A DNA stretch of 35,311 nucleotides from a virus: the IMG/VR virus record IMGVR_UViG_3300017934_000004, positions 1 to 35,311 of that record. One strand, written 5' to 3'. Position 1 is the first letter of the stretch. Every line of letters begins with the position of its first letter. Below, piece by piece: positions 1-35,311 of this stretch. Position numbers and translations under genes: made by a program. Under the pieces are notes generated by a model. It was given only the letters and a program-made list of their open reading frames with translations. It had not been told where the DNA came from and did no database searches.

Positions 1-67
1 AACACGGCGCAGCGTGCCGTCGTTTTCGGCCGGGCGGCGGCACGTGGGGTGGCAGCCGCTACTAGTA
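1..67. repeat. Terminal direct repeat, copy 1 (contig closes on itself)
   Basis: nt 1..67 are base-for-base identical to 35245..35311. This implies a 35244-bp circular or terminally redundant genome. Confidence 0.9.
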
Positions 68-1532: not shown

Positions 1533-2164
1533 ACAGCGCAATTAAAATCGGCTTGCTTGCCGGGGGCGCATGGCTGCTCTATGAATGGTGGCAGCAGCAG
1601 CAGCTTACCGCAGTACCCGGCTCGATTCCTAACGCGGCGTTGCCGGCGCCGACGCCTGGCCCGCTCGGTACGACGGTGAGCAGCTCGCCGGCACCGGCCG
1701 CGCAGGCGACGAACACAGCCGCAAATTCCGCGAGTCTGGCCGCGATCCGTTCGCAGTTGCAGGCACTCGCGATGGCGTACCTGGCGGCAAATCCATCGGC
1801 GACCGGGCTCGATGTTGACCAGTGGAACTATTATTACGCGCAAATCCGGGGCATATCCTTTCCCGGTGCTGCCGGCACTTTAATCCTCAACTCGCTCGGG
1901 ATTCCACTGACCGCGCCTGGCCGTTCGCAACCGGTTTCAATCGACCAGTGGATAAGCGCGGCTGCGGCCGCCGGGCTTAGTGGTTATCGGCGCGGCCTTG
2001 ATGCTGCAGCACCATTCCTGCAGCTCCGCAATCGCGCGAAAGTGATCCGGCTACCACTGACGACACCGGCAATCGCGGCCATTCGCCGCGGCGTGGCGGC
2101 GCGATCGCGAGCCGGGCAAAACTATCTGCCGAGCAATACGCCGATGGTAGGGGGTGCCGCGTAA
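1529..2164 (+). CDS. Membrane protein with N-terminal anchor
   Basis: ATGA overlap with the upstream stop. N-terminal helix IKIGLLAGGAWLLYEWW. Ala/Pro-rich remainder. The track ORF 1457..2164 is trimmed to the in-frame ATG. Confidence 0.6.
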   Translation: MNSAIKIGLLAGGAWLLYEWWQQQQLTAVPGSIPNAALPAPTPGPLGTTVSSSPAPAAQATNTAANSASLAAIRSQLQALAMAYLAANPSATGLDVDQWNYYYAQIRGISFPGAAGTLILNSLGIPLTAPGRSQPVSIDQWISAAAAAGLSGYRRGLDAAAPFLQLRNRAKVIRLPLTTPAIAAIRRGVAARSRAGQNYLPSNTPMVGGAA

Positions 2165-2472
2165 TGGCATTCGTGCGCCGGCGAGGGCGGGGCATGGGCG
2201 ACACAGCAGCTTGTCCCTCGCTCGCTCAACTCATGGGCGTAGTCGATGCAACGGACCCGTGCCAGCAACAATCGCAGATCCCAACTGAAACGACGTATCC
2301 GGTTCTCACGACCGCGCCGGCAAGCGGCGGGGTAACGCCAACGGGCGCGCCGGCGAGTGCCTCTGCTGGCCTGATGAGCTGGTTACAGACCAATCCGGCC
2401 GCAATGCTCGGCCTCGGCGCGGCGCTCTTAGTTGTCGTCGGCGGTGCGCTTCTGGGAGGGCGCCGGCGATGA
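2164..2472 (+). CDS. Small tail-anchored membrane protein (MAFV..RGMGD leader family)
   Basis: TAATG overlap. N-terminus MAFVRRRGRGMGD (motif at 2188..2202). C-terminal helix AAMLGLGAALLVVVGGALLGG followed by RRR. Confidence 0.65.
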   Translation: MAFVRRRGRGMGDTAACPSLAQLMGVVDATDPCQQQSQIPTETTYPVLTTAPASGGVTPTGAPASASAGLMSWLQTNPAAMLGLGAALLVVVGGALLGGRRR

Positions 2473-2714
2473 GTGATTTTAAACGGGCGCCACTTTCCAA
2501 TCTCGCCGCACGCCTGGCGCGAGCAAGTGTCGCGCAGTTTGCCGAGCACGTACGGGCTAATCCTGGCGTGATGGCCGCTTACGATGAACACGCCGCGCCG
2601 ATCGTCGAGGAAGCAATAAACCGAGTGCTACCGGGCGAGCCGTTGAGTTTGGTCGAAATCGCCGATCGCATCGGGATCCTGCCAAAACGAAGGGGGCGCC
2701 GTGCCCTACGTTAG
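2469..2714 (+). CDS. Small soluble hypothetical protein
   Basis: ATGA overlap with the upstream stop. 81 aa, helical-looking, basic C-terminal tail. No motif recognised. Confidence 0.45.
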   Translation: MSDFKRAPLSNLAARLARASVAQFAEHVRANPGVMAAYDEHAAPIVEEAINRVLPGEPLSLVEIADRIGILPKRRGRRALR

Positions 2715-3186
2715 CGCAGCAGTGCCGATGGGCCGGCCAATGATCGCGCCGGCGCGACCTGGCCCGCGCTTGGTGCGCAACCGCGGGCGCCGCGGCGTCG
2801 GCGACTACTTCAGCGAGAATTGTCTCGGGCCGGCATCGCTCGCGACCGTCTTAAACCCGTTCTGTTACCTGTACCCTGGCCGCAACCTTTCAGCGTCGGC
2901 GAGCAATATCATTTCGCCATATAATCCGCCGCCGCTGCCGACACCGATCGCGCAGCCGACGGCATACACGCCAACCGGGGCGGTTGATGTTGCCGGCAAT
3001 CCGGTTTACGACATCAGCTTTCAAACGCCGCAAGAAAACCAGGCGGCGAACGCTGCGCAGGCGCAGCAGTTTTTCACTAACCTCGCCGATCAAAACGCGG
3101 CCGGCAATCCGAGCAGCACGGCGATTTGGCTCATTGCCGGCGCCGTGTTGCTCGGCGGGCTCTGGCTTTTAGGGGGGCGGCAATAA
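2701..3186 (+). CDS. Tail-anchored membrane protein (MPYV..RGVGD leader family)
   Basis: GTG start about 6 nt after an aaggggg SD. N-terminus MPYV. RGVGD at 2791..2805. C-terminal helix AIWLIAGAVLLGGLWLLGGRQ. Confidence 0.6.
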   Translation: MPYVSAAVPMGRPMIAPARPGPRLVRNRGRRGVGDYFSENCLGPASLATVLNPFCYLYPGRNLSASASNIISPYNPPPLPTPIAQPTAYTPTGAVDVAGNPVYDISFQTPQENQAANAAQAQQFFTNLADQNAAGNPSSTAIWLIAGAVLLGGLWLLGGRQ

Positions 3187-3551
3187 TGGCGTACACGATG
3201 CGGCGCGGCATGGGCGATTACGATCAGGTGAAAAACTGGAGCTGGTTATATTATCCGCCTCCGTACGGTTTTGTAAATCCCGATCGGCCGCGGCCAAAGT
3301 CACCTGCGCAGTTCTACGCACCGGCGGCAACGATGGGGCTCGGGTGCGGCTGCGGCGGTACCTGTGGCGGTTGTAGCGCGCCTGGCGCGCCAGGCCTGGG
3401 AATGTTCGAGTCCGGGCTCGATATTTCGGGCTGGGGCCTTGGCGAGTGGCTTACGGTCGGCGCCGGCATCGCGATCGCCGCGGCCGCCTTCGGTAAGGGC
3501 AAGCGGACGGTGCGATCGCGTAAAGCGATGCGGCGCATTAGAGGTTTTTGA
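3186..3551 (+). CDS. Tail-anchored membrane protein (MAYT..RGMGD leader family), Gly/Cys-rich
   Basis: TAATG overlap. N-terminus MAYTMRRGMGD (3204..3218). GCGCGGTCGGC stretch. Helix WLTVGAGIAIAAAAF followed by a basic tail. Confidence 0.6.
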   Translation: MAYTMRRGMGDYDQVKNWSWLYYPPPYGFVNPDRPRPKSPAQFYAPAATMGLGCGCGGTCGGCSAPGAPGLGMFESGLDISGWGLGEWLTVGAGIAIAAAAFGKGKRTVRSRKAMRRIRGF

Positions 3552-4896: not shown

Positions 4897-6156
4897 ATGC
4901 GATTCGTTTTTATTTCCGAGCGCACTTTCGAGCCGTGGGATTGGACGAATCCCGAGCTCGCCGGCATCGGCGGTTCGGAAACGTCACACATTGAAATGGC
5001 CCAACGCCTCGCGCGCCGCGGTCATGATGTCATGTCATACGCGCCGCTCGCGCTCGACGAACGCATGGGCATGGCTCGCGTTGCCGGCTACCAAATCCCC
5101 GCGGATAGCTTCACGGACCCTGCAGGCGTGGAGTGGTATCCGATCGAGCGGTTTCTCGAAGTCGTCGGCCGCGCCCATGTTCCCGGCTTAGTGTATGTAA
5201 TCTATCGCGCGCCGCACCTAGTCGATCTACTGCCGGCCGGCTCGATCGCCTGGCTAATCTGCCAGGATACCGATTACACGCGGGCCGACAACCTGCTCGA
5301 CCTCGATCGCGCGAGCCGGTTTACGCGCATCGTCACACTCTGCCAGGCGCAAGCGAAGGCCATGCGGCGCCGGCTCGATTCCCTGCCTGGCTCGAAAGGG
5401 CGCCGCGATAACATCGTAGTTTCCTCGAACGGCATCAAGCGCGAAACCATCGACGCGCTCGAAAATCTTTCAAGGGAAACGCCGTATGCACCTGAGCGGA
5501 ATGAATGCCGGCTCATTTATGCGAGCTCGCCGGATCGCGGCCTAGAAAATCTCTTGCCCATTTTTGAACGCGTGCGCGAAATCGTGCCCAAGGCCGAACT
5601 GCATGTTTGTTATGGCTTCAACAACATAGAGAAAGTCATCCAGCGCATCGACGATCGCGGCTTTAAAAACAATCCGGTCGCGCAAAACCGCGCGCACCTT
5701 CTCGCTGAAATGGAGCGGCTCGGCGTGCATCACTATGGCCGCCTGGGCCAAACCGAATTGCTCGCGCACTGGCTACGATCCGCCGTTTGGTGCCATCCCT
5801 CGAACTTCACTGAAACAAGCTGTATCACTTGCATGGACGCGCAGGCCTGCGGCGCCGTGCCGGTTACTAATCCAGTGTGGGCTATCGGCGAAAACGTCGA
5901 ACACGGCGTTTTTATTGAAGGCGACGTACGCACCGAAGCAATCCGCGCCCGCTATGTTTATGCGGTCGCCGAGCTGCTGTTAAACCCGCAAATGCAGCAG
6001 GAACACCGGGCCGAAATGATGCCCTGGGCTCGCGATCGTTTCAACTGGGAAAGATTCGTCGATCAGTGGGCTATGTGGGCCGCGGGTGACACAGAAAATT
6101 TAGCCTGGCCGGTGACCGAGCAGGAAATGGCCGATTATCCGGGGGTGACACTTTGA
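4897..6156 (+). CDS. Glycosyltransferase, GT-B fold (GT4/GT1-like)
   Basis: N-terminal GIGGSETS..LARRGHDV and C-terminal PSNFTETSCITCMDAQACGAVPV (E-x7-E-like) match the classical group-1 glycosyltransferase pattern. Confidence 0.8.
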   Translation: MRFVFISERTFEPWDWTNPELAGIGGSETSHIEMAQRLARRGHDVMSYAPLALDERMGMARVAGYQIPADSFTDPAGVEWYPIERFLEVVGRAHVPGLVYVIYRAPHLVDLLPAGSIAWLICQDTDYTRADNLLDLDRASRFTRIVTLCQAQAKAMRRRLDSLPGSKGRRDNIVVSSNGIKRETIDALENLSRETPYAPERNECRLIYASSPDRGLENLLPIFERVREIVPKAELHVCYGFNNIEKVIQRIDDRGFKNNPVAQNRAHLLAEMERLGVHHYGRLGQTELLAHWLRSAVWCHPSNFTETSCITCMDAQACGAVPVTNPVWAIGENVEHGVFIEGDVRTEAIRARYVYAVAELLLNPQMQQEHRAEMMPWARDRFNWERFVDQWAMWAAGDTENLAWPVTEQEMADYPGVTL

Positions 6157-6722
6157 CGCCGGTTAAGATGGCTTCGCAAGTCTATCGCGATCAGTTCGGC
6201 TTTCAGCGCGAGCACTCCAAGGGGCGAGTGTTAAACGTGGGCTCGAATACCGACGGCGCCAAACTCGCAGCCGATTTCGGCGCTATCAACGTCGATATGC
6301 GCATCGTCGATCACGTTTCTGGTTTTGTTTTGCCGGTGGCGGTCTTGGCCGATGCGCGCGCCCTACCGTTTGCTGGTGCCTTCGATACGGTGGTACTAGG
6401 TGAAATTCTCGAACACATGGAGCCTGCCGATGCCGTTCGCTCGTTACGCGAGGCAGTCGCGGCGATCCACGACAGCGGCCAGGTGGTTATCACCATGCCG
6501 CACGACGGTCGGCGCGAAACAGGAGAGATCGAAACGCCGCAGGGCGAAAAACAGTTTTATGCGCCAGGCATCTACGCGTATCACTACCGATCCATCAGCC
6601 GGCTAGAGCTGCTCGCGTGGATCCGCGAGGCAGGCTTGCGCGCCGAAGTGATCGCGCGAATTATTTACGTATGGGGTGAGCAGGGATCCGGAATCGTAGC
6701 GCGAAAGTGGTGCGAGGCATGA
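6153..6722 (+). CDS. Class I SAM-dependent methyltransferase
   Basis: Motif I VLNVGSNTDG, acidic loop, then ALPFAGAFDTVVLGEILEHM. TTGA overlap with the GT4 stop after a ggggg SD (alternative ATG at 6168). Confidence 0.75.
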   Translation: MTPVKMASQVYRDQFGFQREHSKGRVLNVGSNTDGAKLAADFGAINVDMRIVDHVSGFVLPVAVLADARALPFAGAFDTVVLGEILEHMEPADAVRSLREAVAAIHDSGQVVITMPHDGRRETGEIETPQGEKQFYAPGIYAYHYRSISRLELLAWIREAGLRAEVIARIIYVWGEQGSGIVARKWCEA

Positions 6723-7465
6723 TCCGGCACAAACTCATCGGCACAGTTGCATACATGGGCGGCACGATGGCCGTGCCGGAAGCCTTCGCCTGGTCCTGGG
6801 GGCAGCTCATGCGGCACACTGAGGCCGTAATTTGCGGGCCTCATGAGCATATCCACCCTACGCGCTCGACGGTGAGCCTGCACGATTGGGGCCGCAACCA
6901 AATCGTCAGCGACCTGCGCGGCGAGTGGCTTTTTATGCTCGACAACGATTTAGCTTTTGAGCCCGACCTATGCGCTCGCATGTTGGCGATCGCGAACCGC
7001 TATGAGCTCGACGTGGTGACCGGAATTTATTCGTACAAGTCGCCGCCTCACTATCCGGTGTTGTATCTCTACAACCATGAAAGCGGGCAAAACGAAATCG
7101 TCGCCGAATGGGAGCGGAGCTGCGAAGTCTTTCGCGTGGATTCTGCCGGTGCCGGCTGCCTGTTCGTTCGCCGCAGTGTGTTCGAGCGGATCGCACGCGA
7201 GCTCAAGGTTAACCCGTTCGATCGGATCGGGCGCAAGGGTGAAGATCATTCGTTTTTCGAGCGGCTGCGCGAGCTCGGAATCCCGGCCTGGTGCGCATGG
7301 AATATCGAAGTACAGCACCTAGCCGTTTTGGGACTTCAAACCTCGGTGCATTTCAAGCCGACGCGCGAGCCCGATCATTACTACGACGGGCAAGGTTTTG
7401 AAAGAGAAGGGGCTGGCGTAAAGGCGCCGCCACAATTGGGAGAAAAGGAGCAACTAGCACTATGA
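6719..7465 (+). CDS. Glycosyltransferase, GT-A fold (GT2-like)
   Basis: DxD-type motif FMLDNDLAFEPD. GAGCLFVRRSVFERI. GEDHSFFERL. ATGA overlap with the methyltransferase stop. Confidence 0.75.
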   Translation: MIRHKLIGTVAYMGGTMAVPEAFAWSWGQLMRHTEAVICGPHEHIHPTRSTVSLHDWGRNQIVSDLRGEWLFMLDNDLAFEPDLCARMLAIANRYELDVVTGIYSYKSPPHYPVLYLYNHESGQNEIVAEWERSCEVFRVDSAGAGCLFVRRSVFERIARELKVNPFDRIGRKGEDHSFFERLRELGIPAWCAWNIEVQHLAVLGLQTSVHFKPTREPDHYYDGQGFEREGAGVKAPPQLGEKEQLAL

Positions 7466-7807: not shown

Positions 7808-8416
7808 ATGAAATCCACCGTGATAGCGGAAATGCTCGGGATCCTCGGCCGTGCCGAGGCTTCCCGAGCACGGAATGAGCTGCCGGCATTCGCGCAACTG
7901 CGGAGCACGCTCGCGGCCGCCTTTGCATTGGGTTTATACACAGACGCGGATCTTGATGTTTCTGTTTTCATTGACGCGCTAGAGCGAGCGCAGTCGGCGG
8001 CCGAGGTTATGATGCCGGCCGCCGCCATCCGCCAGAAGCTAGAGCCGCTCACGGAAGACGAGGCAACGGGTGCGACCGGTATCGAGCTGCAGACCTATCC
8101 GCCGGCGGTCGAAATCCTCCCGATGGCTCTGGCTGAAGCGCAACAGAGTGAGGCGCCGCCGGCGCCGGCCGCTTTGCCTGCGCACGTTATTAGCGTTCTC
8201 ATCGGTATTCTTGACGCGATCGATGAGGCGCAAACATTGGACGACGTAGCGAGGGGCGTCGCCGTGGCACGTCAGTTTTTACACGATGCCGCGGGCACCA
8301 GTGGAATCCGTAAACCCGAGGCGCCGGCGGCCGATCAAACCGCGCCGGCGGAAACCGACCAGGCCGAAGGCGCATCGGCGCCCGAAGTCGAGGCCGAAAA
8401 CGCAGGGGGTAATTAG
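7808..8416 (+). CDS. Acidic Ala/Glu/Asp-rich helical protein (scaffold-like by position and composition)
   Basis: In-frame ATG at 7808 of track ORF 7664..8416. 202 aa, strongly acidic. Lies directly upstream of the basic membrane protein and the capsid-like gene. Confidence 0.5.
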   Translation: MKSTVIAEMLGILGRAEASRARNELPAFAQLRSTLAAAFALGLYTDADLDVSVFIDALERAQSAAEVMMPAAAIRQKLEPLTEDEATGATGIELQTYPPAVEILPMALAEAQQSEAPPAPAALPAHVISVLIGILDAIDEAQTLDDVARGVAVARQFLHDAAGTSGIRKPEAPAADQTAPAETDQAEGASAPEVEAENAGGN

Positions 8417-9249
8417 TGGCAGTTGCGACACGTACGACCATCATCCCTAACCGCGGGCGACGCCGGCCCGCGGTTAGGCCGATCTCGCCGCACAGGAAAC
8501 GTGCGGGGGCAAAGCGGGCGAAAAATCCATCCGATGTGATCGGATGGACTATGAACAAGGGCCGAAAGTCGGCACAGAAAGGGCGAGGTTTTACAATGGC
8601 ACAGAAATCGAAAAAGAAAAAGAAATCCGCGGCCGGCGCGCGGCCTGTCATCATCATGCGGGCGAACACCGGCAAGAAGCAAAACCGGAAAAACGCCGGC
8701 CACCACAAGCATCATCACGCGATGAAGCACAACAGAGGCCGGCATCATCATGTTCGCCATAATATCGGCGGCGGACGGATGCGCGGAGTGAGCGACCTGG
8801 TGATTAACGGTGTTTTCGTGATCGCCGGCGCGTTGGGCTCGAAACTCATCGCGCAAATGGTGCTCGGTGCCAACAACACAGGCATTATGGGGTACGGCGT
8901 GAGTCTCCTCGCCGGCACTGCGCTTTGGTTTGCAACCGACAAGCTCTTGAAGAATCCCGCGGCCTCGGCCGGCGTGATCTCGGGAACGATCGTGCAAATC
9001 ATCATCCGTCTGCTCAACGACTACACGCCTTTCGGCACGTACGTTGCGAGCCTTGGCATGGGTGACTACCAGGCGCAGGCGTTCCTTACGCCTCAAATCC
9101 TGGTCGATCCGTACAAAAACTCCACTATCAAATTTCCCGCGGCTCTCATGCCGCCGGCGCCTAGCGCGCCGCCGCCGTCGAAAACCATGCCGGCGTCGGT
9201 GGGCGTGAGCGGGTTTGATCCGCTCTATGGTGGCCGCAGCATTTACTAA
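8416..9249 (+). CDS. Basic His/Lys-rich protein with hydrophobic C-terminal half
   Basis: TAGTG overlap (alternative ATGs at 8551 and 8596). KKKKK and HHKHHH..GRHHHVRH tracts. 2-3 hydrophobic helices. LGMGD at 9052..9066. Confidence 0.55.
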   Translation: MAVATRTTIIPNRGRRRPAVRPISPHRKRAGAKRAKNPSDVIGWTMNKGRKSAQKGRGFTMAQKSKKKKKSAAGARPVIIMRANTGKKQNRKNAGHHKHHHAMKHNRGRHHHVRHNIGGGRMRGVSDLVINGVFVIAGALGSKLIAQMVLGANNTGIMGYGVSLLAGTALWFATDKLLKNPAASAGVISGTIVQIIIRLLNDYTPFGTYVASLGMGDYQAQAFLTPQILVDPYKNSTIKFPAALMPPAPSAPPPSKTMPASVGVSGFDPLYGGRSIY

Positions 9250-9307
9250 GGGGCTCGCGACTGGCGCGGGCGGCAGTAAAAATTTAAAGAACAAGGGAGC
9301 ACTTGCG

Positions 9308-10057
9308 ATGCACGCGAAACAATTCGATTTCCGTAAACGGCCAACCCTCGAACAGTTGGCCGCGTGGCTTGAAACGCACACGATTGGAGGCGGGGCCTAT
9401 GGCCCCAATCCCAATCAGAACCCCAGCGGCCAGATTCTCGACGCGACCGAGGCGCAGGGCCGCAACACGAACTCGATCATGGAGGGCTGGGTCGATCGTG
9501 GTCCCTGGCAGTACTGGGATACGATTCCATTTATCGCCGGCGCGCAGGTAGCACAAAGCTACTCGCCGTTTTCGGTGCCGATCGGCCAACAGGATCCGAT
9601 CACGAACACCACGAAAACCAAACTGCAGACCAACCTGCAGCGTGGCAACCAATTCCCGCCGCCGAAATGCCTGCTGCTCATGGCAATCGGCTTTTACTTC
9701 GATCCGACCTGGGCGCTTTCCGATATCCAGGCAGTTTTGAACGCATGCTATATGCAGTTCAAAATCGACGACAAGATTTTCCACGAGGGTTTTCTGTGGG
9801 ACTTCCCGCCGGGCGGTGCGATCACCGGCTTTACGCAAAACTCGGGCGATTCGACTTTCACGCTCGGACTGCCGGCGCCGCAGTACCAACGCCGGTATGG
9901 TGATTGGGCGAAGTACATCGCGCCGATTCAGCAATTCTCGATGGACCTGATTTTCGGCGGTGGCGGCGTCGCCATCCCGACGGTAGGCGTCGCCGAGGGG
10001 CCGAATAACTACCTCATCGTGCAGCTCGACGGCCTGACCGATCGGTCGGTACAGTAG
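9308..10057 (+). CDS. Putative major capsid-like beta-sandwich (jelly-roll-like) protein
   Basis: Strong SD aagggag 8 nt upstream. 249 aa, beta-rich. Followed by an 8-bp stem-loop. Has a shorter paralog at 26847..27398. The capsid role is inferred from position, expression signals and strand pattern only. Confidence 0.55.
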   Translation: MHAKQFDFRKRPTLEQLAAWLETHTIGGGAYGPNPNQNPSGQILDATEAQGRNTNSIMEGWVDRGPWQYWDTIPFIAGAQVAQSYSPFSVPIGQQDPITNTTKTKLQTNLQRGNQFPPPKCLLLMAIGFYFDPTWALSDIQAVLNACYMQFKIDDKIFHEGFLWDFPPGGAITGFTQNSGDSTFTLGLPAPQYQRRYGDWAKYIAPIQQFSMDLIFGGGGVAIPTVGVAEGPNNYLIVQLDGLTDRSVQ

Positions 10058-10813: not shown

Positions 10814-11188
10814 ATGTTCGAGGGACTCCGACAAGCCGATGCTGTGCTCGACGCCTGCGGGCGTGAAGTCGCGCCGCCGGGCTACAAGTTTGTGGACCTT
10901 CCTTATGTCATTCCACAGAAAGCGACGTTTACCAGTGGCGGCCCGACGCCGTTTCAAATCCGCGTGAAAAACAACGGGCTCACGGCGTTCCGCTGTAAGG
11001 GCATCGTGATCGATTGCATCTTACCGATCCGTATAAAGTGGCCGTCGGGCCGCTATCTCGCTCAGGGGCCGAGCTGGCCGGGCTCGGCTGGCTCGCCCAT
11101 CGGCGCCGGTGGAAACTTGATCGCGCTGAACGAGGAAGTCGAGATTGAAAGCGGCGCGAATATCGTCATCGAGGTTTCGCAGCCATGA
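10814..11188 (+). CDS. Truncated beta-sandwich domain protein (paralog of the N-terminal domain of 13942..14937, lacking the last strand)
   Basis: Roughly half of aligned residues are identical to 13942 aa 8-135 (VLDACGR..PPGY..VDLP, F-x-C-[KR]-G, IRI[KR]WP.GRYL.QGP, IALxxExEIExGAxIxIE). It ends at IEVSQP, before the IQFWGV strand. Confidence 0.65.
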   Translation: MFEGLRQADAVLDACGREVAPPGYKFVDLPYVIPQKATFTSGGPTPFQIRVKNNGLTAFRCKGIVIDCILPIRIKWPSGRYLAQGPSWPGSAGSPIGAGGNLIALNEEVEIESGANIVIEVSQP

Positions 11189-12315
11189 CCGAAATAGTAG
11201 ATTCCTTCGGCCTGTACGTGCTTACCTCGGTGAGCCCTGGCGCGAGCCAGAACTCGCTTACCACGTTTTGGAATGCGATCGGGCCTGGTGGTTTCACTAT
11301 GGGCGTGCAGGCTGGCGCCGGCGACCGTGGCAATCCGGCGCTTTATCTTCCGTTCGGCGCCGCGATTTGCAAAACAGTTTCGCATCAGCCGACATACACG
11401 CTCGGCCTCCGCGTTTCAATGAGCTGCGTCGCCGGCGTCGGCGGCGGATCTTCTTTTCTTCAGTTCTGCAACTGCGGTTTCGCGCTCTGCTCTCTCCGCG
11501 TGAACCCCGATGGCTCGATTCTGGTCTACGGAAACAATGTCGGTAGCACTGTGATTTTCACGGCGCCGGCGGGCACCTTGACGGCGGCGACGCAAACCTA
11601 TCTCGAATTGACGGCGACCGTCACGGCCGATGTGCTCGGCGACATGAGCGTAACGGCCGAGGCTTGGGTCAACTCAGTTTCGATCGGCAGCGGATCCGCT
11701 GCGCTCGGCCGGAACATCAGCACGCTCAAAAATGCGGCTGCGAATTTCAACCAGATTTTCATTTTTTCCGGCGTCGCGACGAACGGCCAGGCGTTTGTGT
11801 CCGACCTGTACCTAAACAATGGGCAAGGGCCGACGAACACCGGCCGGCTCTCGCTTTTGCCGCCGAATAATACGGCGCCGTTTGTGATCGTTGAGCCGCT
11901 TGTACCTAACGCTGACACATCGCCGCTCAATTGGACGCCGCTCGCGCCTGGCCCGCACTTCAGCGAGATCAACGAGGTTCCCGCCGACGGCGATGCGTCT
12001 TACAACTTCGCGGCGGCCGCGGCAGCCGGCACGATCGACAATTACCGCTGGCAGCCGATCTCTACTTTTGTAGGAACCGTGCAATCGGTGCAGCTCCGCT
12101 ATCAGGCGCGCTCGACCGCGGCCGGTCCGGCCGGCTATCGTTCGACTGTAGGAATCGGCGGGATCGAGGCGACGGGACAAAAAGCCGGGCTCTGTAGTTC
12201 CTATACTTACCAGGGCTCGCAGACATTCGACCTTGATCCGCGTACCGGGCTGCCCTGGGCACAGCCGAATTTTAACTTGAAACCGTTCGGCGTCGAAGTG
12301 GTGGCACTGCCATGA
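11185..12315 (+). CDS. Fibre/spike-like protein, LamG/concanavalin-like N-terminal domain (inferred)
   Basis: ATGA overlap at both ends. 376 aa, beta-rich, Gly/Asn/Thr-rich. Composition is typical of phage receptor-binding proteins. No direct motif proof. Confidence 0.5.
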   Translation: MTEIVDSFGLYVLTSVSPGASQNSLTTFWNAIGPGGFTMGVQAGAGDRGNPALYLPFGAAICKTVSHQPTYTLGLRVSMSCVAGVGGGSSFLQFCNCGFALCSLRVNPDGSILVYGNNVGSTVIFTAPAGTLTAATQTYLELTATVTADVLGDMSVTAEAWVNSVSIGSGSAALGRNISTLKNAAANFNQIFIFSGVATNGQAFVSDLYLNNGQGPTNTGRLSLLPPNNTAPFVIVEPLVPNADTSPLNWTPLAPGPHFSEINEVPADGDASYNFAAAAAAGTIDNYRWQPISTFVGTVQSVQLRYQARSTAAGPAGYRSTVGIGGIEATGQKAGLCSSYTYQGSQTFDLDPRTGLPWAQPNFNLKPFGVEVVALP

Positions 12316-13955
12316 GCCTGCTGTACGACGACGATTTCCAGAGCTATGCAGTCGGCGCATTCCCGCCTTATGGAAACCTGTTTAATATCGCGATTATTGC
12401 GCCGAAGATCGCAAACAGTGTCCCGCCTGGTGGCGTTTTTGGTGCCGCCAAGTACGTTAACATGGCCTCGCTGCCGAGCCTCATCTGGCCGACGACGACA
12501 CCTTCGACGGCACTACCGGCTTACTCTGAATTTTCCGTTTTCCAGCACGTGCTCATCCTGGGCGGCCAGGGGAGCGATGAACAGGGCGCGATTTTGCAGT
12601 TCAATTGCAACCTAAGCCCATTCGCAGGCATAAGCCTCGCTGCGCTGCGCGTTCTCTCCGATGGAACTCTCGCATTTACGGCACCGCAGAGCTCGGCCTT
12701 TTCTCCGAATCAGTTTGTTTCAAACGATTCGATTCTGGTCAATGCCTGGTACTCGATCCAGACCAACGTTCGGTTTTTCGCGGCCGGTGCATTCGTCGGC
12801 GTCGATGTCGAGGTAGCGATCAATAACAAGTCGGTTTTTGCCGGCAGTTTCGTGACCACTCAAACGGTGGCATCGCTGCCGGCCCTATTCGTAAACAATC
12901 TAATTTTCGGTGGACTCGGCGGCGGCTGCGCTTATGGCCGTATCACCGTTTCTGATACAATCCTCCCGATCGGCGCCGATCCCCATGCCGGCACACCCGA
13001 CGTGCGTGTGACGCAAGGCGCGATCGAGCTCATACTCGCGGCGTCTGGTGGCCTGCCGGTGCCAGTGTGCCCTATCGGTGGCGGTAACGCGACGGTCGGG
13101 CAACTCTACAACAAGACATTGACCGCAAGCGGCGGCATTCCGCCTTACACCTGGAATGTAACCGGCCTGCCGCCCGGCATCACATTCAATCCGGTAAGCG
13201 GGCAATTGCTCGGGATCCCGACCACGCCAGGCACGTTTACATACCTGGCGACGGTTACCGACCTGGCGACGGCGATGGGCTCGGTTAACTGCACGATTGT
13301 AGTCGTCGCCTCGCTCACCGTCGATATTCAGTTTTGGGGCGTGCTCCGTTTCCTGGTGCCGGTTGGATCTGGCGACGGCGACGCCGCTGAGTATTCGGCG
13401 ATCGGGCGCCAGGCATTACGCAGCCTGGCCGCGATCGCGCTTAGGGCGGCCTCAGTGCTGCTCGACCAGTTGGCGCGCACCCTGGCGCCGGCGAGCTCAG
13501 GGCGCCGCCTGCAGCTCGCCGCGTCGCCGGCGTCGGCCGTTAAAATTCCGATCCCTATGCCGGCCGCTCTGGAAACTGCAGCGGATAAGTGCAACTTGCG
13601 ACCGTTTGTGCAACCGGTTGCACAAACGACGCGAGAAACAAATGAGTTAGGTATATCCTTAACACTATCATCGCCTCGCATTCGCTTTTCTGGCGGTTTC
13701 AGTTTTTCTTGGCGGCCATTCGTGCAACCGGTTGCACAAACGACGCGAGAAACAAATGAGTTAGGTATTCCCTTAACACTATCATCGCCTCGCATTCGCT
13801 TTTCTGGCGGTTTCAGCTTTTCTTGGCGGCCATTCGTGCAACCGGTTGCACAAACGACGCTAGAAACAAACGGCTTAGGTATTTTACCCTGCCATTTGGC
13901 AGGGGCTCATAAAACGCCGACGTTTTTAGGGGAGGGTATCAGTGGCGCAGCTTAG
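12312..13955 (+). CDS. Fibre/spike-like protein with Ig-like (He_PIG-type) domain; 3' third reads through a 114-bp repeat array
   Basis: Residues 248-332 (13053..13307), containing GQLYNKTLTASGGIPPYTWNVTGLPPGITFNPVSGQLLGIPTTPGTFTY, match the putative Ig domain consensus. VDIQFWGVLRF at 13320..13352. No stop until 13953. GC3 falls from about 75 to about 38 percent inside the repeats, so the real C-terminus is uncertain. Confidence 0.55.
   Translation: MSLLYDDDFQSYAVGAFPPYGNLFNIAIIAPKIANSVPPGGVFGAAKYVNMASLPSLIWPTTTPSTALPAYSEFSVFQHVLILGGQGSDEQGAILQFNCNLSPFAGISLAALRVLSDGTLAFTAPQSSAFSPNQFVSNDSILVNAWYSIQTNVRFFAAGAFVGVDVEVAINNKSVFAGSFVTTQTVASLPALFVNNLIFGGLGGGCAYGRITVSDTILPIGADPHAGTPDVRVTQGAIELILAASGGLPVPVCPIGGGNATVGQLYNKTLTASGGIPPYTWNVTGLPPGITFNPVSGQLLGIPTTPGTFTYLATVTDLATAMGSVNCTIVVVASLTVDIQFWGVLRFLVPVGSGDGDAAEYSAIGRQALRSLAAIALRAASVLLDQLARTLAPASSGRRLQLAASPASAVKIPIPMPAALETAADKCNLRPFVQPVAQTTRETNELGISLTLSSPRIRFSGGFSFSWRPFVQPVAQTTRETNELGIPLTLSSPRIRFSGGFSFSWRPFVQPVAQTTLETNGLGILPCHLAGAHKTPTFLGEGISGAA
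13594..13885. repeat. Tandem repeat, 114-bp unit, about 2.6 copies
   Basis: Units 13608..13721 and 13722..13835 are 111/114 identical. A third partial unit starts at 13836. Each begins with the palindrome GTGCAACCGGTTGCAC. Confidence 0.9.
13608..13851. promoter_or_regulatory. Three copies of the 16-bp palindrome GTGCAACCGGTTGCAC, 114 bp apart
   Basis: Exact copies at 13608..13623, 13722..13737 and 13836..13851, upstream of the gene starting at 13942. Confidence 0.7.
13887..13926 (+). other. Two short hairpins between the repeat array and the 13942 start
   Basis: ccctgcc-attt-ggcaggg (13887..13904) and aaaacg-ccga-cgtttt (13911..13926), followed by a ggagg SD. Confidence 0.4.
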
Positions 13956-14937
13956 AATGCAACCGCTACGTGAGGCCGATATGGTGCTCGACGCGTGCGG
14001 CCGGCGGCAACCGCCGCCGGGTTACCGTTGGGTCGATTTACCGGCCGTGCTGCCGTTCAACTGGTCACAATTCGCGACCGTAGCGCCAGTGACGCCGGCG
14101 CAGGGACGCGTTGCCAACAATTCCAAGGCGAATTTTATTTGCCGCGGCGTGATGATTCAGAGCCCGGTCGGTGTGCGGATCCGCTGGCCTGGCGGCCGCT
14201 ATCTCTCGCAAGGGCCTACTTGGGTCGGCGTGCCGACCGTGCCGGGCAATCCGATCGCGACCGGCGGAAGTATGATCGCGCTCGACAGCGAGCAGGAAAT
14301 CGAGCGCGGCGCAAAAATCGCGATCGAAATGTCGGGCGGCACTGCCGGCCTGGTTAATATACAATTTTGGGGCGTGCGACGGTACTTACTTATGCAACCG
14401 AAAAACGGCGGCGCCGGCAGCTCGCCGGCGATGATTCCGGATCCGATCGACGAGCTGGAAGCACGGCCACGCTATCGGTGCGGGCCGCCTCAGAACATCA
14501 TGGCGCCCGAGTGGTACCTCGGAAACCAATGCACGCCGGAAACGCCGGCAGGTTACGAAGATGAGCCCTTTACATTCTTCTCGCCGCCGATCACCGTGCC
14601 CGTCGCAAAGCAGAATTTCAATAACGCCGTGATCGTGCCCGGCGGCGACGATGTGATTATCCGGCGGTACCGGGCAATCACCGATTACAGCGGGCTCGGT
14701 GGAGCCAGCTCGACGATTCCGGTATTCTCGCTGCGGCTGCCTAATGGCTATTCAGTCACCGGCGGCGATCTTGTTCCGACGCCGTTTCTGTTCTGGATCC
14801 CGATGTTTCCGACGATCCGCCTGCATCCCGGCGATCGGATCATACTCGACGTGGCCGACATGCAACCGGTCGGTACGGGCTCGGTGACGACGACGTTTGA
14901 ATTTGAGGGCGTGAAACGGAGGAAACTCATAGTATGA
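13942..14937 (+). CDS. Two-domain beta-sandwich protein (domain family F-x-[CL]-R-G .. F-x-G-x-[KR])
   Basis: GTG start 6 nt after ggagg. Domain 1 has FICRGV, IRIRWPGGRYL, AKIAIEM, VNIQFWGVRR. Domain 2 has VIIRRYRAI, FSLRLPNGY, LHPGDRIILDV, FEFEGVKRR. Confidence 0.7.
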   Translation: MAQLRMQPLREADMVLDACGRRQPPPGYRWVDLPAVLPFNWSQFATVAPVTPAQGRVANNSKANFICRGVMIQSPVGVRIRWPGGRYLSQGPTWVGVPTVPGNPIATGGSMIALDSEQEIERGAKIAIEMSGGTAGLVNIQFWGVRRYLLMQPKNGGAGSSPAMIPDPIDELEARPRYRCGPPQNIMAPEWYLGNQCTPETPAGYEDEPFTFFSPPITVPVAKQNFNNAVIVPGGDDVIIRRYRAITDYSGLGGASSTIPVFSLRLPNGYSVTGGDLVPTPFLFWIPMFPTIRLHPGDRIILDVADMQPVGTGSVTTTFEFEGVKRRKLIV

Positions 14938-26004: not shown

Positions 26005-26251
26005 CGCTTCCCCCTGTATTGGCAGGCCGTTCGCACCGGCAGGGCATACGATCGCAGGCCGGGCAGTTCATGCGGCCGATATTCGCCGAGCTGCCGACAA
26101 TTCGGGCGATGCGCAAGGCGGCGAGGATCACGGCCAGCTCATCGCCATCCGCCTGCAAATCGACGACGCGGCGATCGGCTACGGCCGGCAGTGGATCGCC
26201 AAGGTGCCAGATGACTACACCATCGGTATGTGGATCCCCAAAATAGATCAC
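25991..26251 (-). CDS. Hypothetical protein
   Basis: GTG at 26251 in a GTGA overlap with the recombinase stop, preceded by an aggggggg SD. Confidence 0.5.
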   Translation of the reverse strand: MIYFGDPHTDGVVIWHLGDPLPAVADRRVVDLQADGDELAVILAALRIARIVGSSANIGRMNCPACDRMPCRCERPANTGGSDARR

Positions 26252-26850
26252 TTCCCCCCCTTATCCTCGGCCTCGGCCAAAGTGCGGCCGACGACGCTTT
26301 TACTGGACTTCAATTCAGTAGCGATCTCGCGCAGGCTATAGCCGGCATCTCGCAGCTCGCGCACGCGTATCCTGTCGAGCACTGCCGGCCGGCGGCCGCC
26401 GATGACGCCATTCGCCCTGGCGCGCGCCAGACCGGCCCTAACGCGGGCCTGCATCGTTAGGCGTTCCTGCTGCGCGATAAATGCCGCAATCGCGATGAGC
26501 AGCTCGCCGGCAGGGCCGGCAGTTCTGAAATGCTCCTCGTTCATGCTCCATAACTGCACGCCGGAACTGCGCAGCCTAGCAATGAGCTCGAACGCGCTCG
26601 CAGGCCCGCGGCGGGTGAGCCGGCTTAGATCGAACACCAGCACGGTATCAAAGTCGCGCCGGGCCGCGTCCCGCATCAAAGCCTCAAGGCCGGGCCGCGC
26701 GGAGCTCGCGCCAGTGATTTCATCGGTGTAGACTGCGGCGACTTTCCAACTCATCGCCGCGGCGTATTTCCGAAGGGCGCGGACCTGGCTACTGAGGTTC
26801 TGCTTTCCGTCCGACGTGCTGATTCGGGCATAGACGCCTGCGGTTTTCAT
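26248..26850 (-). CDS. Small serine recombinase (resolvase/invertase family)
   Basis: N-terminal GVYARISTSDG (catalytic Ser context). D..LVFDLSRLTR. C-terminal HTH GYSLREIATELKSSKSVV. 200 aa. Confidence 0.9.
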   Translation of the reverse strand: MKTAGVYARISTSDGKQNLSSQVRALRKYAAAMSWKVAAVYTDEITGASSARPGLEALMRDAARRDFDTVLVFDLSRLTRRGPASAFELIARLRSSGVQLWSMNEEHFRTAGPAGELLIAIAAFIAQQERLTMQARVRAGLARARANGVIGGRRPAVLDRIRVRELRDAGYSLREIATELKSSKSVVGRTLAEAEDKGGK

Positions 26851-28180: not shown

Positions 28181-28243
28181 GTGCAACCGGTTGCACGGCG
28201 AGTTTGTGCAACCGGTTGCACGAAAACGCGCAACCGGTTGCAC
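28181..28243. promoter_or_regulatory. Three clustered copies of the palindrome (operator, iteron or res-like array)
   Basis: GTGCAACCGGTTGCAC at 28181..28196 and 28206..28221, and GCGCAACCGGTTGCAC at 28228..28243. Lies in the divergent region between 28136 (-) and 28564 (+). Confidence 0.75.
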
Positions 28244-35170: not shown

Positions 35171-35311
35171 ATGTTACCGCGCGTGCGGAATCTGCAGCGG
35201 CCGGCCCGGCCCCGGCTGCAACTTATCAAACCGTCAACACTAGCAACACGGCGCAGCGTGCCGTCGTTTTCGGCCGGGCGGCGGCACGTGGGGTGGCAGC
35301 CGCTACTAGTA
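35171..35311 (+). CDS. Probable 5' end of the gene that continues as 14..745 across the junction
   Basis: ATG at 35171 is in frame (87 nt) with the ORF at 14 once the 67-nt overlap is collapsed, with no stop between. The start choice (ATG 35171, GTG 14 or ATG 149) is unresolved. Confidence 0.4.
   Translation, partial: MLPRVRNLQRPARPRLQLIKPSTLATRRSVPSFSAGRRHVGWQPLLV
35245..35311. repeat. Terminal direct repeat, copy 2
   Basis: Identical to 1..67. Confidence 0.9.

Follow-up and report, generated by a model that had tools for sequence, protein, structure and literature searches.

The window analysed here is a viral contig of 35,311 nucleotides (nt) with a GC content of 60.5% (IMG/VR record IMGVR_UViG_3300017934_000004), in which a beta-sandwich domain is divided between two genes. 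Open reading frames (ORFs) are named by their first position. The short gene 10814, called the socket gene, is followed by the cargo genes 11185 and 12312 and by 13942, a full-length paralog of the short gene; the segment of 12312 that corresponds to the strand lacking in 10814 is called the plug. The features of the region are as follows (aa, amino acids; bp, base pairs; Ig, immunoglobulin).

10814..11188, plus strand: socket gene, 124 aa, a paralog of domain 1 of 13942 that is cut just before the last beta-strand.
11185..12315, plus strand: cargo gene 1, 376 aa, with no strand motif; it travels with cargo gene 2.
12312..13319, plus strand: cargo module of cargo gene 2 (aa 1-336), with an N-terminal beta-rich domain and a He_PIG Ig-like domain.
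13320..13358, plus strand: plug VDIQFWGVLRFLV (aa 337-349 of ORF 12312, in frame), which corresponds to the strand that closes domain 1.
13359..13955, plus strand: variable tail of ORF 12312, about 200 aa, absent in the related loci L002, L004 and L006.
13608..13883, no strand assigned: 114-bp tandem repeat, 2.4 copies, with the operator-like palindrome GTGCAACCGGTTGCAC in each unit.
13942..14937, plus strand: two-domain full-length paralog, 331 aa, with its own last strand of domain 1 at 14353..14391.

The product of 10814 aligns with residues 6-131 of the 13942 product with 65 of 126 positions identical (52%; expectation value (E) 5e-40), and the alignment ends at ..GANIVIEVS in the former and ..GAKIAIEMS in the latter, which is the endpoint at which an earlier note on this DNA, made from the letters alone, had said that the match to domain 1 stops. 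The AlphaFold2 (AF2) model of 13942, built from an alignment of 49 sequences, has a mean predicted local distance difference test score (pLDDT) of 80 and contains two beta-sandwich domains (residues 28-151 and 205-328), the first of which is closed by the 14-residue strand LVNIQFWGVRRYLL (138-151, pLDDT about 88), with a disordered linker next to it. The 10814 product ends at ..IEVSQP before this strand and has no domain 2, and is thus not a complete domain; by similarity it belongs to the family of two-beta-sandwich proteins represented by 13942, and the profile of the short forms also retrieves full-length members. Homologs of 13942 number 88 in a large protein collection, many of them encoded on contigs of 32-37 kb, and an exhaustive profile search of 1.84 billion representatives gave only 79 members of the family. 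Judging by the model, the fold of this family is probably jelly-roll-like and the sandwich of 10814 is probably a jelly roll.

The strand that 10814 lacks was placed by the earlier note at 13320..13358, after the Ig-like domain of 12312, and this position is confirmed: the segment is in frame and follows the He_PIG domain (aa 257-331). The plug VDIQFWGVLRFLV and its counterpart VNIQFWGVRRYLL in 13942 (14353..14391) are identical at 9 of 13 residues and 27 of 39 nt, the nt identity between 10814 and 13942 over the N-terminal part being 55%. A regular expression for the strand, run on a six-frame translation of the window and eight other loci (257,000 aa), matched full-length genes and cargo genes, in the latter only their C-terminal parts, and nothing else. 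The exact 13-nt match between 13332 and 14365, also taken up in the earlier note, exists, and the word is unique, but it carries no weight by itself, since the GC-rich window holds about 100 other direct repeats of at least 13 nt. Two further ideas were given up. The strand is not the last strand of the Ig domain, as it lies beyond the end of the Pfam match and also beyond the region of homology with P0103 and P0105, two relatives of the 12312 protein. An apparent covariation of W/C in the strand with V/I in the fragment was dropped because independent lineages are too few and the full-length proteins do not follow it consistently.

The same arrangement recurs in related elements. Thirteen short homologs of 10814 (110-133 aa) were collected, and the genomic context was taken for ten loci. 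Twelve of the 13 homologs reach the C-terminal region, and all 12 end at the same alignment column. The cassette is complete in seven loci (the window, L001, L002, L004, L005, L006 and L012), where one or two cargo genes come after the short gene and the last of them carries the strand near its C-terminus in every case; in L008, L010 and L011 the sequence ends within the cargo. The lengths of the genes and the ends of the strand-bearing cargo proteins are as follows.

Window: short gene 124 aa; cargo 376 aa and 547 aa; end ..TVDIQFWGVLRFLV, then a tail of about 200 aa.
L001: short gene 123 aa; cargo 652 aa; end ..IDVNVIFCGVVRFMILD, then a tail of about 180 aa.
L002: short gene 125 aa; cargo 449 aa; end ..LDVALVFCGVIRYLVVDTEKGAVRK, then the stop.
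L004: short gene 128 aa; cargo 614 aa (without strand) and 144 aa; end ..LEIALIFCGVIRYLVRDSSAKAVG, then the stop.
L005: short gene 127 aa; cargo 458 aa; end ..LELDVVFCGVIRFLIRDK, then a hydrophobic tail of about 55 aa.
L006 and L007: short gene 133 aa; cargo 434 aa; end ..RSDIQFWGVLRYLLKEEECE, then the stop.
L012: short gene 123 aa; cargo 522 aa; end ..LEVNIVFCGVVRFMIRD, then a tail of 60 aa.

The cargo proteins of L002, L004 and L006 stop 6-11 aa past the strand, and where there are two cargo genes (the window and L004) the strand is present only in the last one. Outside their last 25-40 residues, most cargo proteins have no detectable similarity to each other; several contain Asp-box-like motifs recognised by eye (e.g., SxDxGxTW), and one has a glycine-rich domain. 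In the more distantly related L003, neither the short gene nor the cargo was found, and the full-length gene stands directly after the homolog of 10187. Judged from these sequences, the split domain is a conserved architecture under selection, present in several clades and combined with differing cargo. The earlier note had seen in the locus a footprint of modular evolution; the split is real and the strand does lie at the end of the inserted genes, but with seven complete loci it is not a single footprint.

The ratio of nonsynonymous to synonymous substitution rates (dN/dS) of the short gene was 0.07-0.27 in six pairs, which indicates purifying selection. Among the strand codons, the fraction of nonsynonymous differences was lower than that of synonymous ones in 15 of 15 pairs, with many synonymous changes, so the constraint on the strand acts at the level of the peptide. 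By neighbour-joining, the window short form groups with those of L001, L008, L002, L004 and L005 in one clade, which mirrors the branching of the full-length paralogs and therefore points to one old duplication. The short form of L006 is closest to the full-length protein of the L003 type (49%), and in L010 the 124-aa short form P0144 is encoded directly after the full-length P0084, resembles the N-terminal part of it, and is followed by an 11185-like gene (26% identity). Short forms are thus found in three clades; for each, the full-length type of the same clade is either the nearest relative or the neighbouring gene, and the occurrence of the split architecture in all three implies independent origin or exchange between paralogs.

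As to the content of the window cargo, the 11185 product matches phrog_2448 (E 1.5e-12), a family without assigned function, and the He_PIG domain (PF05345) of 12312 (aa 257-331, nt 13080..13304) scores 40.3 bits against a cut-off of 24 (E 4.5e-10). No Pfam match at E ≤ 0.1 was obtained for the 11185 and 12312 proteins beyond this Ig domain; the terms 'fibre' and 'LamG', which the earlier note used for these genes, are putative labels. In L009, P0103 (42% identity to 12312) adjoins an upstream homolog of 11185 (45% identity). Past its Ig domain, P0103 continues into an unrelated domain of about 230 aa and the strand is absent; P0105 ends soon after the Ig domain, and the homology of 12312 to both proteins ends directly after the last Ig strand. 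L009 and the window (17.7-18.9 kb) also have downstream genes in common. On this comparison of sequences, 11185 and 12312 are a mobile two-gene cassette, and the insertion of such a cassette, postulated in the earlier note, agrees with the side-by-side position of the two homologs in L009, where the second gene has another C-terminus. Since the L009 homologs have a different C-terminal domain instead, the strand appears to be a clade-specific anchor joined to the imported cassette, not a part of the cargo.

The domain also occurs in single-chain form. In P0084 and P0086 a domain of about 125 aa lies between ..KITIEVQQPAV and PIYMYFWGVLRYLLK, which is the same loop as that of the window split, and P0133 (713 aa) has a repeat-rich insert of about 440 aa, propeller-like by eye, between ..ISIEVS and VSFWGVLRYML. 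P0084, P0086 and P0133 are cis members with the cargo in the split loop, and they fit the suggestion of the earlier note that the cargo was inserted into the last loop of a duplicated copy of domain 1. Between the body of the 144-aa cargo of L004 and the inserts of the single-chain proteins P0084 and P0045 there is homology (E 1e-4), so that the trans and cis forms display related modules at the same site. P0130, P0135, P0151 and the P0035 group have their inserts in two other loops of domain 1. These two further loops, of which the first follows VDLPxIIPFH and the second separates the FxCRG and RIxWP strands, hold inserts of 125-450 aa in P0035, P0038, P0045, P0051, P0077, P0081, P0130, P0135 and P0151, among them BNR-like modules resembling the trans cargo.

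It is rather probable that the 124-aa fragment receives its missing strand in trans, from the C-terminal part of the cargo protein, and that exchangeable modules are anchored on the virion in this way. The 10814 product would be a beta-sandwich without its final strand, that is, a socket, and the folded part of the last cassette protein (12312 in the window) would end with the missing strand. The proteins would be translated separately, and the strand would then insert into the incomplete sandwich, rebuilding a copy of domain 1 of 13942 with the cargo hanging from what was the last surface loop. The product of 11185, the cargo gene without a strand, would probably ride on 12312. The rebuilt domain would seat exchangeable, probably glycan- or receptor-binding, modules on the particle, and the sole requirement for a new cargo would be a short C-terminal strand. 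The split, its conservation, the purifying selection, the turnover of cargo and the single-chain equivalents are observed; that the two parts physically associate, sit in the virion and serve receptor binding is inferred from such comparisons.

Several observations weigh against this mechanism. A tail of 55-200 aa follows the strand in the window, L001, L005 and L012, so the strand is not always the true C-terminus. The AF2 model of aa 1-358 of 12312, based on three sequences, has a pLDDT of 48.6 (below 60 over aa 1-250) and only its Ig domain is usable; the strand is therefore unmodelled, and the model shows only that it lies outside the Ig domain. The family profile of 13942 has no sequence match to any solved structure, and the fold matches of 13942 in PDB and BFVD are weak, with a template modelling (TM) score of about 0.2, and concern generic tandem beta-sandwich proteins; with Foldseek the model matched chains of PRD1 P3 and PR772 at E 7e-5 and probability 0.97, yet at a TM score of about 0.2. 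Finally, the strand could bind another partner, e.g., the full-length paralog.

This last point leads to the alternative that survives best, although we regard it as unlikely: the strand would dock elsewhere, inserting into or exchanging with 13942 or another virion component, and the 124-aa protein would be a temporary cap, a chaperone or an independent structural protein. The strand resembles the own strand of the full-length protein as closely as would be expected for a partner of the short fragment, and strand exchange after capping by a chaperone is established in chaperone-usher pili. Nevertheless, the short gene and the strand always occur together, L003, which has no short gene, also has no strand-bearing cargo, and in L006 and L007 the short gene and the cargo are present in stretches of 10.6 kb and 8.3 kb in which no full-length gene was called.

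Alternatively, the flanks could serve only as DNA homology arms for the exchange of cassettes between co-infecting relatives, without any role at the protein level. The turnover of cargo exactly between conserved flanks is what such arms would produce, but the DNA of the strand differs between lineages at many synonymous sites while the peptide pattern is kept, and 39 nt make a poor homology arm. As a complete explanation this is improbable; as a side benefit it is compatible with completion of the socket by the cargo strand. Slightly less credit still is due to the idea of a non-functional scar, in which the insertion of the cassette broke a duplicated gene and left a 5' fragment and a 3' strand to decay. 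The duplicated copy has indeed lost domain 2, and the window stretch past the strand has a non-coding composition. However, intact short ORFs occur in 13 protein clusters, dN/dS being 0.07-0.27, the strand is kept despite many synonymous changes, the cargo has been replaced repeatedly with both flanks retained, and the same architecture is found in three clades, so that this reading is strongly disfavoured.

The remaining alternative depends on the junctions between the ORFs. In the window, both junctions (10814/11185 and 11185/12312) read gccATGA, as the earlier note had pointed out, but their identity is not conserved and is incidental, because relatives use other junctions. Across the seven loci, the junction of the short gene and the cargo is formed by ATGA, TTGA, GTGA, TAA with a spacer of 2 or 7 nt, or an overlap of 8 nt, and the downstream gene is shifted in frame by -1 in five of the loci and by +1 in the other two. 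At the junctions of these seven loci no X XXY YYZ slippery heptamer was seen, and they thus have neither of the marks of a programmed frameshift, a conserved heptamer and a constant offset. Separate translation is the simplest reading of such variable junctions, and the expression of the three ORFs as a fusion, considered in the earlier note, is not supported. A jelly roll with a giant loop insertion, made by frameshifting or read-through from 10814 to 11185 and 12312, has natural single-chain versions (P0133, P0084) and the ATGA overlaps of the window in its favour, but it is the least probable of all the alternatives, given the varying junctions and offsets, the lack of a slippery heptamer and the two recoding events that the window would require.

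The tail that follows the plug deserves separate description. Within the tail of ORF 12312, the GC content of in-frame third positions drops from about 0.75 to about 0.4 past 13587, and the final 350 nt are not coding-like; in the window, L001 and L012 the frame of the tail nevertheless remains free of stops. Past the strand, a helix of hydrophobic or amphipathic character is present in L005 (753..2129, last 55 aa, e.g., LALAILIGLAALGALVA), in the window (13359..13590) and in L001 (9470..9740), which hints at a contact with the membrane or the particle interior beneath the rebuilt domain.

The perfect palindrome GTGCAACCGGTTGCAC occurs three times at a spacing of 114 bp at 13605..13883, within the 3' tail of ORF 12312, and an AT-rich intergenic stretch at 28181..28243 holds three further copies at intervals of 22-25 bp; no copies are expected by chance. 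It is also found twice in L001 (9750..9903) and twice, as AQPVAQ, in the L012 tail (ORF 1915..3483), and P0102 (509 aa), from a near-identical contig, equals the 12312 protein minus one repeat unit. The set looks like putative operators of a phage regulator, placed ahead of the 13942 operon. A diversity-generating retroelement was also considered for the 114-bp repeat; the scanned proteins included no reverse transcriptase.

An exact 67-nt direct repeat is present at both ends of the window (1..67 and 35245..35311), so the window probably represents an entire genome of 35,244 bp that is circular or else terminally redundant. In the window proteins scanned, Pfam and PHROGs recognised no terminase, portal, HK97-type capsid or tail protein. 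The 13942 protein had no match in the GenBank phage collection, and there was none in the GTDB species genomes scanned; no significant hit came from PDB sequence searches with ORF 3548, ORF 32160 and the family profile of 13942, and Pfam and PHROGs assigned no function to 10187, 10814, 13942, 14934 and 15782. The element may represent an undescribed group, possibly of tail-less phages. Directly upstream of the structural genes, at 4897..7465, a methyltransferase and two glycosyltransferases (GT4/GT1-like and GT2-like) are encoded, a cluster that is also kept in L004 and L008 and may modify a virion protein or a host glycan. The gene at 8416..9249 (5243..6055 in L001), directly upstream of the most conserved structural gene (9215..10057), encodes a protein whose N-terminal half is His-rich and extremely basic and is followed by hydrophobic helices; it could be a membrane-anchored DNA-condensing protein. 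A small serine recombinase with a Resolvase domain and a helix-turn-helix motif lies at 26248..26850 on the minus strand (E 4e-34), and a Resolvase-domain gene was also called in L006 (10098..10632, minus strand); a connection of the recombinase with the palindromes is conceivable.

Completion of a fold by a separate strand has precedents. In chaperone-usher pili (PapD/FimC), an incomplete beta-sandwich is completed by a strand of another polypeptide. That system differs in its Ig-like pilin fold and in the donor strand, which is supplied by the chaperone or by an N-terminal extension of the following subunit, and a scan of 30 window proteins found no PapD-like chaperone, usher or pilin Pfam family. 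Modular receptor-binding proteins of phages combine a conserved anchor with exchangeable distal modules, and the window locus resembles them in its conserved attachment element, in the fast exchange of cargo and in a cassette common to unrelated phages (L009). The anchors of phage receptor-binding proteins known to us are contiguous domains of the same protein, usually N-terminal, whereas the putative anchor of the window is split between a 124-aa gene and a 13-aa C-terminal strand. Viral jelly-roll proteins carry domain insertions in surface loops, and the cis relatives P0084, P0133, P0130 and P0135, with domains of 125-450 aa in three loops, are of this kind. In engineered strand-11 tagging of split green fluorescent protein (GFP), a single strand rebuilds a beta structure, as the plug would do; the window differs in that the insertion has been cut into separate genes.

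The closest logic is that of the PilC/PilY1 adhesin, whose C-terminal peptide completes the beta-sheet of the minor pilin PilK at the tip of the type IV pilus, while PilK homologs of type II secretion have the strand within their own chain (PMC12918778, bioRxiv 2026). There, as is proposed here, a short C-terminal peptide of a large protein completes a small partner, and the trans form has a cis counterpart. Unlike that bacterial pilus system, with its pilin fold and unrelated sequences, the window socket is a paralog of a putative phage virion protein, and the split coincides with the site of cargo insertion. The window locus is a member of none of the PilC/PilK, chaperone-usher and split-GFP families, and in the literature searched no viral strand complementation used as an anchor and no natural viral case of an insertion cut into separate genes were found.

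More tentatively, we propose that these poorly known phages of about 35 kb, possibly tail-less, may load their host-recognition modules through a split domain, in which a terminal strand tag of about 13-16 aa on any protein is caught by a 124-aa socket, and that this arrangement, a natural counterpart of split GFP and SpyTag, may have originated, or been created anew, in at least three clades. If this is true, evolution would repeatedly have used a minimal rule by which cargo of any kind is attached to a virus particle, and it would explain how receptor-binding modules can be exchanged with unrelated viruses with only a 13-aa tag being kept. The existence of the same domain in trans and cis forms offers a natural system for studies of fragment complementation, and the tag and socket may provide a pair for phage engineering. 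A short orphan ORF beside a variable gene can be one half of a split domain, a point that matters for the annotation of viral dark matter.

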